From Promethearchaeota archaeon (GTDB taxonomy: Archaea; Asgardarchaeota; Thorarchaeia; Thorarchaeales; Thorarchaeaceae), in assembly GCA_014728035.1 (NCBI GenBank), contig WJMJ01000123.1:32001-96000 (forward strand): a stretch of 64,000 nucleotides of DNA, given 5' to 3'. Below the pieces are notes generated by a model, which was not told where the DNA came from, searched no databases, and saw only the letters and a list, made by a program, of their open reading frames with translations. This document shows, piece by piece, positions 33,042 through 37,560 of this stretch. A program made the translations under genes and the position numbers. Numbering within the stretch: the stretch's first letter is position 1; every line of letters begins with the position of its first letter.

Positions 33042-33201
33042 TTAATCTTGTTCCTGTTGAATTGTATTTCTTACATCTCGCTCTCCCAAAGAGTTCTTAT
33101 ACTAGCTTCGTATGGATACTATCAGCCATCAGTAGAATTGAATAACCAATAATCAAATCGGTTACACATTATTCTGCAGCGTGGAATTGATGGAGGTAAA
33201 T

Positions 33202-33765
33202 ATGGTGGTTAGTAAATCAGATGACGAAAAGAAATCTGGTGATAGAAAGAAAATTATCAGCGTTACCGTATCTCAGTCATTAGTAGACCGGATAGACGAA
33301 TTGGTTCAAGAAAGAGTAGCTCGTTCCCGAGCCCAGCTAATCGAAGATGCAGTCAGATGGTATCTTGAACGAACTGTATACAAATGGACTGAACGCGGAA
33401 TCTATATCGACTCCTTTAGAATCATATTGGAATCAGAAACCCTCTCATCTCTCTTTTTCTCGAAGCTTACTCCAACTGACCAGTATGAGTTAGGAAGAAC
33501 TGCAGGAAGTCAAGCTCCTTTTGCTGATGTGGTTCGTCTATTTCATGGACAGGATCCTACTAATCCGAATACAAGAGAACTAGTTTACAATCTACTCCAG
33601 GAAAATGGCTGGGGGTCGTTTAGCCAACGTGATGATATAATTGTCATTGCTAGTCCGTTTTATCCAGGTCCATTCATTCAAGGATATCTGGAAACGCTCT
33701 TAGATGTAGAACTAGAACTAATGGGTACCAATGTAAAAGATAATGTTGCATTAAAAATCAAATAA
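33202..33765 (+). CDS. Ribbon-helix-helix (CopG/NikR-like) regulator fused to a V4R-like domain
   Basis: IISVTVSQSLVDRIDELV...SRAQLIEDAVRWYL (RHH); YELGRTAG...GWGSF...FIQGYLE (V4R-like). GGAGGT RBS before ATG at 33202. Confidence 0.78.
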   Translation: MVVSKSDDEKKSGDRKKIISVTVSQSLVDRIDELVQERVARSRAQLIEDAVRWYLERTVYKWTERGIYIDSFRIILESETLSSLFFSKLTPTDQYELGRTAGSQAPFADVVRLFHGQDPTNPNTRELVYNLLQENGWGSFSQRDDIIVIASPFYPGPFIQGYLETLLDVELELMGTNVKDNVALKIK

Positions 33766-33806: not shown

Positions 33807-34250
33807 CTACCACTCCTCACCCATCATTAGAATCTCAAATTCGCTTTCAAAAAGACCAGGAATGCTCTCCAGAGTGTTTCTGATTGAATTTTCCTTTGAT
33901 TTGATATCATCTGAGGAAAAGTATACTTCGTAGATACATCTATTCTGTTCAAAACAAAAGCCCGTAGAAAATAAGACCTTTAGATTCATTTCTTTAAACA
34001 GCTTTGTCATGGTTTCCATCAGTTCTCTGTGAACCTTCTCAACTTCTAATCTGATTCTAGCTCCACTTTTTCTCATCATCGGAAAAAGTTTGATTTCACC
34101 AGAACGTTCAAAATAGATGACCATTGCAGCTTGCATATCTTTCAGCATTGGGTTCGCAAAGAATTCTTCTGGAAGTGAAATGTTTCTTTTTTTTCGGATA
34201 TCAGCAATCATTCCTTTAGTAAGTCCGGCAGCCACGTTTGATACCTCCAA
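33807..34250 (-). CDS. Putative regulator: AbrB-like N-terminus plus ACT domain
   Basis: ADIRKKRNISLPEEF (AbrB-like loop); C-terminal beta-alpha-beta-beta-alpha-beta ACT pattern ending LESIPGL. Confidence 0.55.
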   Translation of the reverse strand: MEVSNVAAGLTKGMIADIRKKRNISLPEEFFANPMLKDMQAAMVIYFERSGEIKLFPMMRKSGARIRLEVEKVHRELMETMTKLFKEMNLKVLFSTGFCFEQNRCIYEVYFSSDDIKSKENSIRNTLESIPGLFESEFEILMMGEEW

Positions 34251-35347: not shown

Positions 35348-35473
35348 ATGGCAAAAGAAGGAGCAACTTATGTATGTGATATATGCCAACAAATTGTTGT
35401 TGTGCAAAAATCAGGTCCTGGAACTTTAGTATGCTGTGGACAACCCATGAGACTATATGCAGAAGAGGATTAA
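35348..35473 (+). CDS. Stand-alone desulforedoxin (FeS4 domain of desulfoferrodoxin), 41 aa
   Basis: Below the ORF-track cutoff. Manual translation MAKEGATYVCDICQQIVVVQKSGPGTLVCCGQPMRLYAEED has YxCxxC...G.G.LxCCGxPM; GGAG RBS upstream. Confidence 0.9.
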   Translation: MAKEGATYVCDICQQIVVVQKSGPGTLVCCGQPMRLYAEED

Positions 35474-35527: not shown

Positions 35528-35592
35528 AAATCGATAATATTTATTAGCGATTAGCTATCTCTGACGCTGAATTTCTTTATCGAGGTGGCATA

Positions 35593-36153
35593 ATGGCTGA
35601 CCTACCTTCAATTATCATAAAAACTAGAAATCTTCTCAGCATGCGGGGTTATACTGTTTCCGAGCTATTTGAGTATGAAAACAGATATGTTCTTTATCCC
35701 ATCCGTGAAAAGGACGGTAGTACTTACAAACAAGTCGTCTGGATTTTCAAAGAACCACTAGTTGTTGGAATTGCCTTCGTAAAAGATTTGTATTATGAAA
35801 TGCAAGAAAAAGATGCGATTAACGGGATGTTAGTTGGAGGTCTGAGATTTACACCCGCTGCGAAGAAGGGAGCTCGTGGACGTCGAGTGGAACTGATTCA
35901 AGGGAATTATTCCTCTTTCGATTTATTTGACCATCATCTTGTTCCCCGTCATCGTATTGCAGAAGATGATGAAATCAATCTTCTTCTTAACTTCTATGGA
36001 ATTACAAGGTCTGAACTACCAAGGATTATCCGTGATGATCCAGCAGTCAAAGTTCTTGGAGCACGCCCTGGTCAGGTTATCCGAATAGAAAGAGATAGTC
36101 TGGTTGCGGGAATTACATATTATTATCGACTAGTAATTGACGGTAAAAGATAA
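35593..36153 (+). CDS. rpo5: RNA polymerase subunit Rpo5/RPB5, full-length (jaw + assembly domain), copy 1
   Basis: C-terminal HHLVPRH...LPRI..DDPA...GQVIRIERDS..AG..YYYRLV; N-terminal RGY, KEPLVVG, FTPAAKK. GAGGTG RBS. Confidence 0.9.
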   Translation: MADLPSIIIKTRNLLSMRGYTVSELFEYENRYVLYPIREKDGSTYKQVVWIFKEPLVVGIAFVKDLYYEMQEKDAINGMLVGGLRFTPAAKKGARGRRVELIQGNYSSFDLFDHHLVPRHRIAEDDEINLLLNFYGITRSELPRIIRDDPAVKVLGARPGQVIRIERDSLVAGITYYYRLVIDGKR

Positions 36154-36170
36154 CCAATCGTAACCATTCA

Positions 36171-36203
36171 AGAAACCTTATAACCCCAATTCAGAATTGG
36201 GGT
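36171..36203 (+). promoter_or_regulatory. BRE/TATA promoter of rpo5 copy 2 abutting a perfect 21-bp palindrome
   Basis: AGAAACC-TTATAA (36171-36183) followed by ACCCCAATTC-A-GAATTGGGGT (36183-36203). Confidence 0.6.
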
Positions 36204-36224
36204 CTTGGCCCTGGTGTTGATAAT

Positions 36225-36788
36225 TTGGTTGAATTTCCGACTGTTGTAATGAAAACAAGATCTCTCCTCACTTTAAGAGGATATGAGGTTGATGAGTTAT
36301 TCGAATATGAAAATCGTTACGTGATGCATCCAACTCGAACCAACTCTGAAGGGATTACCATCAAGATGATTGTTTGGGTTCTAAAAGAACCAAAAGTAGT
36401 CGGAGTCGCAGTTGCAAGAGATATTCAACGTGATATGATTGAAGAGGATGCTACTCGTGGTATGATTGTGGGTGGTGCACGTTTTACTCCTGCTGCAAAG
36501 AAACACTCTAGGAAAAATGGTATAGAACTGGTAGAAGGAAACTATGCATCTTTTGATCTATTTGGGCATGAATTAGTTCCTGAACACACAATTGCTGATT
36601 CTGATGAAGTTGATCTAGTACTAGACCATTATGGAATTGACAAACCACACTTACCAAGAATCAGGCGAGATGATCCTGCTGTTCGTGTGTTAGGAGCAAG
36701 AACTGGTCAAGTCATTCGAGTCGAACGTGATAGTGCTACGGCAGGTCGAACATACTATTATAGACTTGTAATCGATTCTAAACGATAG
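36225..36788 (+). CDS. rpo5: RNA polymerase subunit Rpo5/RPB5, full-length, copy 2
   Basis: HELVPEH, LPRI..DDPA, GQVIRVERDSATAGRTYYYRLV; N-terminal RGY, KEPKVVG, FTPAAKK. TTG start. Confidence 0.92.
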   Translation: MVEFPTVVMKTRSLLTLRGYEVDELFEYENRYVMHPTRTNSEGITIKMIVWVLKEPKVVGVAVARDIQRDMIEEDATRGMIVGGARFTPAAKKHSRKNGIELVEGNYASFDLFGHELVPEHTIADSDEVDLVLDHYGIDKPHLPRIRRDDPAVRVLGARTGQVIRVERDSATAGRTYYYRLVIDSKR

Positions 36789-36789
36789 T

Positions 36790-37560
36790 CTATATTACAA
36801 TAACTCCAAGAATTGTTGCTACATAGAACATCACAATCGTACAAATCATTGGTACTGTTACATTATCTGTACCTTTTGGACTGACTAATTCCACTAATGT
36901 TGCTGTTACTGCACCCGTTAGCGCTAGAAGAATCATCTCAACAAACAGAATTTCTCCGCTGCTGACAAATACTTGATAATTTACAATTCCAAAGAACCAG
37001 AAAGCAATCAATGAACCTATGAATCCAAAGATGAAAAGGGCAGAGCATCCGTGAAGACTTCTTTTTGAGCCTTTTATCTCAATACAATGATTGACACCCC
37101 ATTTCATTCCAATTGGTGCTGATAGACCATCACCTAACATCATGATATGAATTGCAGCTGCAGCAACGAAATACCAAGCATCATTTCCAGTGAAAGTAAA
37201 AATTGCAGTGAGAACTGTAATAGAAACTGCGTACCAGAAGGGGCCTCTAACAGAATCACTCTCTTCATCTTCTGATCTCGCCATTGCATGGAAAAACCTT
37301 TCAAACCTCTTTGAGCTTGCCATTCCCAACATAATTACAAAAGTTAGAGCAACAAGAGTTGCCACCCATGGATGGGGATAGTATGGAACGGTCCATATTG
37401 CAGCACCTGCAAACAGATGCACGATCTTTCTGGTAAAGTCCGACCCCATATCTAATTTCCTTCGTGCAACATCAGCAACTGTCAAGACAATAACAGCGTA
37501 TAATACTGCGATAAAATATACAACGATGTCTTCGAAAGTGATTAGTAATTCGACCTGCAT
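36790..37560 (-). CDS. Polyprenol/dolichol (SEC59/phytol-kinase-like) CTP-dependent kinase
   Basis: TRKIVH, GDGLSAPIG, KRSLHG and ELVSPKGTDNVTVP motifs; multi-TM. Confidence 0.88.
   Translation of the reverse strand: MQVELLITFEDIVVYFIAVLYAVIVLTVADVARRKLDMGSDFTRKIVHLFAGAAIWTVPYYPHPWVATLVALTFVIMLGMASSKRFERFFHAMARSEDEESDSVRGPFWYAVSITVLTAIFTFTGNDAWYFVAAAAIHIMMLGDGLSAPIGMKWGVNHCIEIKGSKRSLHGCSALFIFGFIGSLIAFWFFGIVNYQVFVSSGEILFVEMILLALTGAVTATLVELVSPKGTDNVTVPMICTIVMFYVATILGVIVI

Follow-up and report, generated by a model that had tools for sequence, protein, structure and literature searches.

The 64,000-nucleotide stretch of Promethearchaeota archaeon DNA analysed here (the window; family Thorarchaeaceae, contig WJMJ01000123.1) carries two adjacent genes that each encode a full-length, two-domain Rpo5, the RNA polymerase subunit called RpoH or subunit H in archaea and RPB5 in eukaryotes. 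The C-terminal half of each protein is the assembly domain common to archaea and eukaryotes, while profile searches and predicted structures relate the N-terminal half to the jaw domain of the eukaryotic subunit. An earlier note on this DNA had described two tandem, eukaryote-like paralogues of 186 and 187 residues, lying apart from rpoB and rpoA, and had suggested that the archaeon may build alternative forms of its RNA polymerase. The pair was found as described, with the following features (lengths and start codons from the list of open reading frames):

35593..36153, + strand: rpo5 copy 1 (upstream), ATG start, 186 aa; jaw (Rpb5_N-like) domain at residues 1-105, Rpb5_C assembly domain at residues ~107-186
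36225..36788, + strand: rpo5 copy 2 (downstream), TTG start, 187 aa; jaw domain at residues 1-106, Rpb5_C domain at residues ~108-187

The genes are separated by a spacer of 71 nt and the proteins were 61% identical over their whole length (115/187 residues, BLASTP E 8e-89), with about 53% identity in the N-terminal 105 residues and, by subtraction, about 73% in the C-terminal 80. The source genome (G000) is a metagenome bin of 173 contigs, 97.9% complete with an estimated contamination of 8.5%. A six-frame search for PF01191 found only these two genes in the whole genome, so that the third, short rpoH for which a check had been suggested is absent, and, as these are the sole Rpo5 genes, at least one of them must serve the polymerase. 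A third candidate for the Rpb5_C domain, on contig C161, scored 12 bits within a 1187-aa frame among unrelated genes and was rejected as an rpoH.

If both proteins are polymerase subunits, the cell would have two isoforms of one polymerase that differ mainly in the jaw and whose ratio is set by separate promoters, a reading to which we give an even chance. Alternative isoforms are plausible; we infer from the evidence below that the cell produces both proteins, that each is incorporated into the polymerase and that the two enzymes differ in behaviour. A broader proposal is that in this Asgard family the one RNA polymerase exists in two forms through the exchange of one eukaryote-type Rpb5 jaw subunit for another, with the two genes under separate promoters of which one is overlaid in this genus by a unique palindrome, and that this is the first archaeal instance of core-subunit paralogue switching and a prokaryotic forerunner of the subunit diversification behind the several nuclear polymerases of eukaryotes. 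This proposal is tentative and less likely than not to be true.

Published descriptions give archaea a single RNA polymerase whose set of subunits does not vary, and present the N-terminal half of Rpb5 as having been added in eukaryotes (PMC1802627, PMC3424549, PMC13257274). The locus bears on both views, in that an archaeon closely related to eukaryotes has a gene for the two-domain subunit, and the family of this archaeon keeps two diverged copies, under selection and with separate putative promoters. If both copies enter the enzyme, they would provide a simple natural system in which to ask what role the Rpb5 jaw has at the downstream DNA and how a small shared subunit can become the starting point of polymerase diversification. 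Should the copies be redundant, the pair would nonetheless be a well-supported case of a core transcription gene duplicated at the level of a family.

The assembly domain was recognised in both proteins by two family models. The Pfam model RNA_pol_Rpb5_C (PF01191, cut-off 23.5 bits) gave 81.5 bits (E 4e-23) for copy 1 and 86.0 bits (E 1.5e-24) for copy 2, while the NCBIfam RpoH equivalog NF007129 (cut-off 83 bits) gave 85.5 and 90.9 bits, respectively, and the matches covered the last ~75 residues of each copy. By these scores, both copies are bona fide Rpo5 proteins. In yeast Rpb5, the residues H147, P151, D182, R200 and R212 contact helices alpha45/46 of Rpb1 and their mutation is lethal or conditional (PMC1802627). 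With a yeast-to-copy-2 offset of 32, derived from the alignment ranges of 1dzf, the corresponding residues are H115, P119, D150, R168 and R180 in copy 2, and H114, P118, D149, R167 and R179 in copy 1; all five are invariant in the archaeal alignments (A1, A4). The C-terminal globe of Rpb5 ties together two Rpb1 elements beside the bridge helix and switch 1 (PMC1802627), and in archaea efficient open-complex formation and early transcription depend on subunit H, which is also involved in the handling of downstream DNA (PMC2847245).

The contact with the largest subunit was modelled for copy 1 only, with both partners entered as alignments. The docking model of copy 1 with RpoA'' scored 0.78 against 0.00 for the best control, the runs agreed in at least 92% of the contacts and the pLDDT (predicted local distance difference test) of the partners was at least 83. 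In calibration, 58 of 80 solved complexes attained the mark used, as did 2 of 110 mismatched pairs. Because Rpb5-Rpb1 complexes have already been solved, such a result expresses likeness to known complexes and is not proof of binding. The earlier note had allowed that neither protein might dock on Rpo1; in the model copy 1 does so, with clean controls. The predicted interface consists of residues 113-118, 149-151, 167, 169-174 and 179, that is, the HxLVP, DP, R167, SxxAG and R179 segments. Three changes in copy 1 fall within it, with H in place of E at 115, V in place of T at 171 and I in place of R/K at 174. The loss of the conserved Thr, already remarked on in the note, is real, since each of the 34 other family sequences compared has Thr at the position of V171, and H115 (in HHLVP), V171 and I174 are changes specific to the genus.

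The N-terminal domain was not recognised by the Pfam jaw model Rpb5_N (PF03871). Neither protein matched this model in hmmscan at E up to 1, nor did any part of the genome in a six-frame search at E up to 10. The proposed check with both Pfam models thus succeeded for Rpb5_C and failed for Rpb5_N in both copies, and the two N-domains appear to be homologues that lie beyond the reach of PF03871 as it is now drawn. The only Pfam similarities of the N-domains were weak ones to Mrr_cat and NA-iREase1, the Mrr_cat scores (PF04471, cut-off 21 bits) being 24.5 bits for copy 2 and 19.8 bits for copy 1, which is consistent with a shared fold superfamily.

Searches of the PDB sequences related the domain to RPB5. 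With phmmer, the best match of copy 2 was human RPB5 (E 2e-19), and eukaryotic RPB5 chains ranked ahead of archaeal subunit H. The alignment paired residues 43-182 with 67-209 of the human protein, which reaches well within the N-domain, and placed EPKVVG opposite EPKVG, TRGMIV opposite TRALIV and FTPAAKK opposite MTPSAKQ. A profile of 40 archaeal long forms matched RPB5 at E 3e-36, with an alignment to Arabidopsis NRPB5A that extended to residue 28. When the RpoH domain was left out and a profile of 34 N-domains was searched against 177,635 PDB sequences, the top 11 matches were all eukaryotic RPB5 chains, with E from 3e-7 to 3e-3 (human 3e-7, Drosophila 2e-6, Arabidopsis 1e-5, yeast 1e-3), followed by the next match at E 0.35. 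Positions 9-92 of this profile aligned to 15-111 of the Arabidopsis chain, and no Mrr or other nuclease chain was among its PDB matches. Single N-domains gave nothing significant against the PDB (copy 2, E 0.24; copy 1, no match), and a profile of the first 50 residues retrieved no RPB5 from it.

The predicted structures pointed in the same direction. The AlphaFold2 model of copy 2 (pLDDT 90.8) had eukaryotic or viral RPB5 chains as its top 35 Foldseek matches (E 3.5e-15; template modelling score by query, TMq, 0.73-0.78 over ~200 columns), and it superposed on the full-length RPB5 of polymerases I, II and III, whereas the short archaeal subunit H covered the C-terminal third only. The model of copy 1 (pLDDT 87.6; predicted template modelling score, pTM, 0.55) also had eukaryotic RPB5 as its top matches (E 1.8e-14) at a TMq of 0.44-0.49, a lower value that is not read as a structural difference because the modelled linker and domain arrangement are uncertain. 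Profile and model evidence together indicate homology between the N-terminal domain and the jaw of eukaryotic RPB5, and the description of the proteins as full-length, two-domain and eukaryote-like is upheld by the PDB searches and the structure matches of both copies.

In PMC3424549, Rpb5_N is listed among the PD-(D/E)XK folds and as confined to eukaryotes; the likeness to Mrr and the homology to the jaw thus describe a single fact. The possibility that the domain would model as an unrelated Mrr nuclease gives way to a nuclease-derived fold in the version found in the RPB5 jaw. In the alignment of 34 N-domains, R18 and T88 were invariant and G60, R86, E101 and L102 nearly so. No catalytic D...(D/E)xK triad was conserved across these domains, the K-E of the central strand (LKEPK) not being kept outside the family, and the fold is therefore that of an inactive nuclease.

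All the motifs quoted in the earlier note were present. LRGY occupies residues 17-20 in both copies, after a helix at 6-17 in both models, and R18 is the sole invariant residue in the first 50 positions of the Asgard long forms. The arginine of the yeast DRGY motif, R26, lies at the end of helix alpha1 and is lethal when its charge is inverted (PMC1802627). The profile alignment to Arabidopsis spans the RGY helix, and the archaeal RGY presumably corresponds to the eukaryotic DRGY at the residue level. Copy 2 has EPKVVG and copy 1 EPLVVG, and both have RFTPAAKK, of which T88 is the invariant Thr; in yeast, P118 of the equivalent TP(S/A)AK loop faces the DNA cleft (PMC1802627). In the C-terminal domain, HELVPEH and SATAGR of copy 2 are replaced by HHLVPRH and SLVAGI in copy 1.

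The large subunit genes were located elsewhere in the genome, in agreement with the claim that the pair does not lie beside rpoB or rpoA. The rpoB gene is on contig C82 (1114-4509, minus strand) as an unsplit 1132-codon frame followed by the start of rpoA', with no rpoH upstream of it on that contig, and rpoA' and rpoA'' are on contig C25. One rpoB, one rpoA'' and one rpo6 were found in the genome; therefore, any variants would be isoforms of one enzyme and not separate polymerases. The start of rpoA' occurs twice near the end of contig C82 (1-1204), with the same N-terminal peptide in frames at 1-678 and 863-1204, which looks like an assembly problem.

The long form of the subunit is not special to this organism and is common in many Asgard families. 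A total of 223 relatives of 178-208 aa were found, the named ones labelled as RpoH of Thor-, Loki- or Promethearchaeota. In a sample of 201 Asgard genomes, the Rpb5_C domain occurred in frames of 180-315 codons in many families and in short frames of 81-125 codons in families f3, f8, f9, f13 and f16. Two variants of the long form were seen among other Asgard genomes. In one family (L042, contig C63 of G039, - strand) Rpb5_C ends a 465-codon frame with extra nuclease-like sequence before the jaw domain, which may be a multi-jaw form, while the proteins of L004 (G030) and L005 (G040) have a Glu-rich, acidic C-terminal tail of 30-40 residues that the thorarchaeal proteins are without. No paper on a two-domain Rpo5 in archaea was found, in a literature coverage that was incomplete, so that this is absence of evidence only, and none was found describing a duplicated archaeal Rpo5. 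A 2026 survey of archaeal polymerase subunits covers forms of Rpo8 and Rpo6 and still calls the N-terminal domain a eukaryotic feature (PMC13257274).

The distribution of the tandem pair was surveyed within the class in 87 genomes, 85 of them from one family. The pair was present in 5 of the 16 genera of that family and in ~37 of the 71 genomes with a match, always with the same neighbours. The copies of a pair lie ~640 nt apart. The genera concerned, with the number of genomes with a match in which the pair was found, are:

genus g1 (that of the window): 2/2
genus g3: 10/11, the exception being at a contig end
genus g4: 4/4
genus g6: 20/27
genus g15: 1/1

The eleven other genera of the family and its sister family have a single rpo5, and a sample of 153 Asgard genomes representing 25 further families yielded no pair. 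Two genomes of g6 (G068, G077) have a third, partial or separate Rpb5_C match on another contig, which could be a further copy, a strain mixture or contamination.

The pair is old, conserved and not strain-specific. In the gene tree, upstream copies pair with the upstream copies of the congener and downstream copies with downstream ones, with a support of 97-100 (100/100 in this genus); therefore, each pair predates the species splits within its genus. The identity of the paralogues was 58-71% in every two-copy genus, with a nonsynonymous divergence (dN) of 0.26-0.33 and a saturated synonymous divergence (dS). The RpoB tree placed all of the two-copy genera in one clade with 96% support, along with five one-copy genera. 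The Rpo5 tree lacked resolution inside the family, and forcing a single upstream clade cost 11.5 log-likelihood units and was not rejected (approximately unbiased test, p = 0.23). Both one early duplication followed by several losses and a few parallel duplications are possible. The order of the locus is constant in the family, namely a desulforedoxin-like gene, one or two rpo5 genes and a convergent gene for a 256-aa membrane protein, and the duplication therefore occurred in place.

Both copies are under purifying selection and appear to be functional. For pairs with unsaturated dS, dN/dS was 0.07-0.27 for the upstream and 0.08-0.13 for the downstream copies, and where dS was saturated dN stayed at 0.03-0.2. 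At the 96 family columns that are at least 80% conserved, there are 9 departures in copy 1 and 8 in copy 2, almost all of which are common to the congener (G001) and are therefore fixed rather than the result of random decay. The earlier note had considered that its proposal would fall if the duplication were strain-specific with relaxed selection on one copy; instead, the pair extends over five genera, dN/dS is low and the conserved columns are kept.

Each gene has its own putative promoter and ribosome-binding motif. The elements identified in the window are:

35531..35546, + strand: element of copy 1 resembling a TFB recognition element (BRE) and TATA box, TCGATAATATTTATTA, 46 nt 5' of the ATG; putative promoter
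35582..35588, + strand: Shine-Dalgarno-like GAGGTGG of copy 1, 5 nt before the start codon
36171..36183, + strand: BRE/TATA-like element of copy 2, AGAAACC-TTATAA, inside the 71-nt spacer with TTATAA at 36178-36183; putative promoter
36184..36202, no strand assigned: perfect 19-nt palindrome CCCCAATTC-A-GAATTGGGG, abutting the copy 2 TATA box
36213..36216, + strand: Shine-Dalgarno-like GGTG of copy 2, 8 nt before the TTG start

The upstream element has the consensus TTGAyAATsTTTATAT and was at an equal distance in 9/9 two-copy genomes compared, while the downstream copy was preceded in all nine by CTTTATA or CTTATAA 40-50 nt 5' of the gene. Since a conserved element stands before each copy, the duplication would have copied the promoter as well, and separate transcription of the two genes is possible. 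A GGTG ribosome-binding motif lies ~8-12 nt before each copy in the nine two-copy genomes, which represent all five genera, and GGGTG stands at a constant distance before the TTG or GTG start of the downstream copy in all five. The upstream copy begins with ATG in eight of the nine genomes (GTG in the congener) and in both of two added genomes, whereas the downstream copy has a TTG or GTG start in all of them. Support for the non-ATG start of the downstream copy comes from the conservation of the N-terminal residues and from the GGTG motif, and as several single-copy genera also use TTG, the start codon is no mark of a lesser gene.

The palindrome had no second occurrence in the genome at up to 2 mismatches, and the idea that it is a regulon operator was therefore rejected. 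Folded as RNA, the spacer has an energy of -19.9 kcal/mol (z -2.3 against shuffles). The congener has a different inverted repeat (6+3+6) at the same position and the other genera have none, so the palindrome may be a genus-specific operator or structure.

Rpb5, or subunit H, sits at the lower jaw of the polymerase, and the jaw domain of RPB5 lines the downstream-DNA channel. In the mechanism proposed here, an old in-place tandem duplication would have copied the rpo5 gene together with its promoter. The C-terminal globe of each copy would clamp onto the largest subunit, Rpo1 (A'/A''), and the N-domain, with its inactive nuclease fold, would form part of the lower jaw at the downstream-DNA channel. 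As a polymerase has a single site for Rpo5 and the genome a single set of large subunits, the two proteins would most likely be rivals for this site, and the one RNA polymerase would occur as two populations with different lower jaws, in a ratio set by the two promoters and by the ATG and TTG start codons.

Several known systems are comparable. Eukaryotic Rpb5 (RPABC1, POLR2E, yeast ABC27; PF03871 plus PF01191; PDB 1dzf, 8uhd_E, 6exv_E) is shared by RNA polymerases I, II and III and has the same two-domain architecture, with a length of 205-215 residues compared with 186-187 here. The likeness extends to the five Rpb1-contact residues, to the PD-(D/E)XK-derived fold of the N-domain and to the EPKVG, (T/R)xxIV and TP(S/A)AK motifs, which align residue by residue. 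The thorarchaeal N-domain differs in being ~25-30 residues shorter, below the reach of PF03871, and the gene in being duplicated in tandem and serving a single archaeal polymerase. Plants likewise have paralogous Rpb5-type subunits in one organism (the NRPB5 family and the Pol V-specific NRPE5), which are used in different polymerase forms (Pol IV/V), and the plant chains 7eu0_E ('Pol II and IV subunit 5A'), 8hyj_E and 8hil_E ('Pol V subunit 5A') were among the PDB matches of the profile. The plant paralogues work with different catalytic subunits, whereas the single rpoB, rpoA'' and rpo6 here would allow isoforms of one enzyme only. The analogy to plant Pol V drawn in the earlier note is thus apt for the subunit-5 paralogues and breaks down for the catalytic sets, and although the pair may operate in the manner of subunit-5 switching, it does not amount to a multi-polymerase system. 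The canonical short archaeal RpoH/Rpo5 (~75-85 aa; PDB 4qiw_H, 8cro_H, 2waq_H, 1hmj) matches the C-terminal 75 residues of the thorarchaeal proteins, with E from 4e-18 to 1e-9 for the archaeal chains, a Foldseek template modelling score of 0.83-0.92 by target and a root mean square deviation of 1.1-1.6 Å. The short gene is usually at the head of the rpoH-rpoB-rpoA cluster (PMC10833476), whereas the thorarchaeal Rpo5 has an extra jaw of 105 aa, is encoded outside the rpo cluster between the desulforedoxin-like and membrane-protein genes and is present in two copies.

The genome also has six genes for TFB (TFIIB-type) factors, which together account for 12 cyclin repeats. Two of the genes form tandem pairs, and the number of paralogues of this basal initiation factor is unusually large. 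They are located at:

contig C45, 104353-105960: TFB gene region
contig C151, 58398-58949 and 75049-76834: TFB gene regions
contig C44, 165660-166208: TFB gene region

The multiple TFB and TBP paralogues of archaea such as the haloarchaea are alternative basal transcription factors. As in those sets, one polymerase would be diversified through paralogous parts, but TFB and TBP are dissociable initiation factors, whereas the duplicated Rpo5 is a core subunit of the polymerase. With six TFB genes present, paralogue-based tuning of transcription would fit the habits of this genome.

A number of observations weigh against the two-isoform reading: 1) the domain arrangement in the free copy 1 model is uncertain, as its pTM of 0.55 and its score of 0.44-0.49 to RPB5 indicate, 2) the changes of copy 1 at interface positions 115, 171 and 174 could weaken the binding to Rpo1 rather than tune it, 3) the second copy is dispensable in close relatives, since eleven sister genera and several species of g6 have one copy, and 4) no diagnostic residue, net charge or isoelectric point, taken by domain, separates the upstream from the downstream copies across genera. 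There are tendencies only, in that downstream copies mostly have DLFGH and VELVEG and upstream copies are often without a basic residue after TAG. If the copies are specialised, the specialisation would be genus-specific or of a kind not visible in sequence; the lack of a cross-genus signature, together with the many one-copy relatives, argues against one that is deep and shared.

Some of these observations lend themselves to an alternative, that the copies are redundant, or partitioned by expression or dosage, and do the same job without functionally distinct forms of the polymerase. That no residue or charge signature distinguishes upstream from downstream copies in five genera would be expected of such duplicates, as would the single copy of many sister genera and some g6 species, the retention of all known critical residues in both proteins and the resemblance of both promoters to one consensus. 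Interchangeable genes would not, however, be expected to evolve at the unequal rates seen in g1, where orthologues in the two species are 78% identical for copy 1 and 95% for copy 2. Moreover, the copies have long been apart (58-71% identity, saturated dS) and yet are retained in nearly all genomes of g1, g3 and g4 with a match and in 20/27 of g6, and their N-domains have diverged more than their C-domains (53% against ~73% identity). Taken together, the time for which the pair has been retained, the difference in rates and the changes at the interface argue against simple redundancy, which is on balance unlikely while still deserving serious weight.

It is also conceivable that one copy, here the fast-evolving copy 1, has left the polymerase and become a free DNA- or factor-binding protein, a chaperone-like partner in Rpo1 assembly or a competitive regulator of Rpo5 incorporation, with copy 2 as the real subunit. 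Between G000 and G001, copy 1 has evolved ~3-4 times faster than copy 2 (dN 0.12-0.145 against 0.03-0.055), it is on a long stem in the gene tree (0.53), its N-domain is the more basic in g1 (net charge +4/+5 against +1/0 for copy 2), and it replaces the Thr invariant in 34 relatives as well as two other residues of the predicted interface. Set against this, the five Rpb1-contact residues and the TPAAKK loop are intact in copy 1, which is no more deviant than copy 2 at the conserved columns (9 against 8 of 96) and gave the confident docking model with RpoA'' and clean controls. The peculiarities of the g1 upstream copy are, in addition, not common to the upstream copies of g3, g6 and g15. The departure of copy 1 from the polymerase is accordingly thought a distinctly poor prospect.

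That one copy is decaying toward a pseudogene, or that the pair is an artefact of assembly or binning, might be suspected in a metagenome bin with 8.5% estimated contamination and with some relatives having one copy, but is scarcely credible, since the two intact reading frames lie side by side on a single 104-kb contig while differing in 39% of residues, which is compatible with neither kind of artefact, the same pair with the same synteny occurs in ~37 genomes of five genera, and dN/dS is far below 1 in both copies, which keep the conserved columns equally.

The genes flanking the pair, given as context, are:

35348..35473, + strand: desulforedoxin-like gene, 41 aa (Pfam Desulfoferrod_N, E 3.7e-13)
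36790..37560, - strand: convergent membrane-protein gene, 256 aa, without a Pfam match; downstream boundary of the rpo5 locus

Farther upstream are two possible regulators, a 194-aa protein at 33181-33765 (+ strand) with an N-terminal ribbon-helix-helix (CopG) domain and a 147-aa protein at 33807-34250 (- strand) without a Pfam match. In tblastn searches of 24 loci of the family, the membrane-protein gene was directly 3' of rpo5 in all 24, and the desulforedoxin-like gene was 100-250 nt 5' of rpo5 in 20, forming with it a conserved gene pair in the thorarchaeal family.

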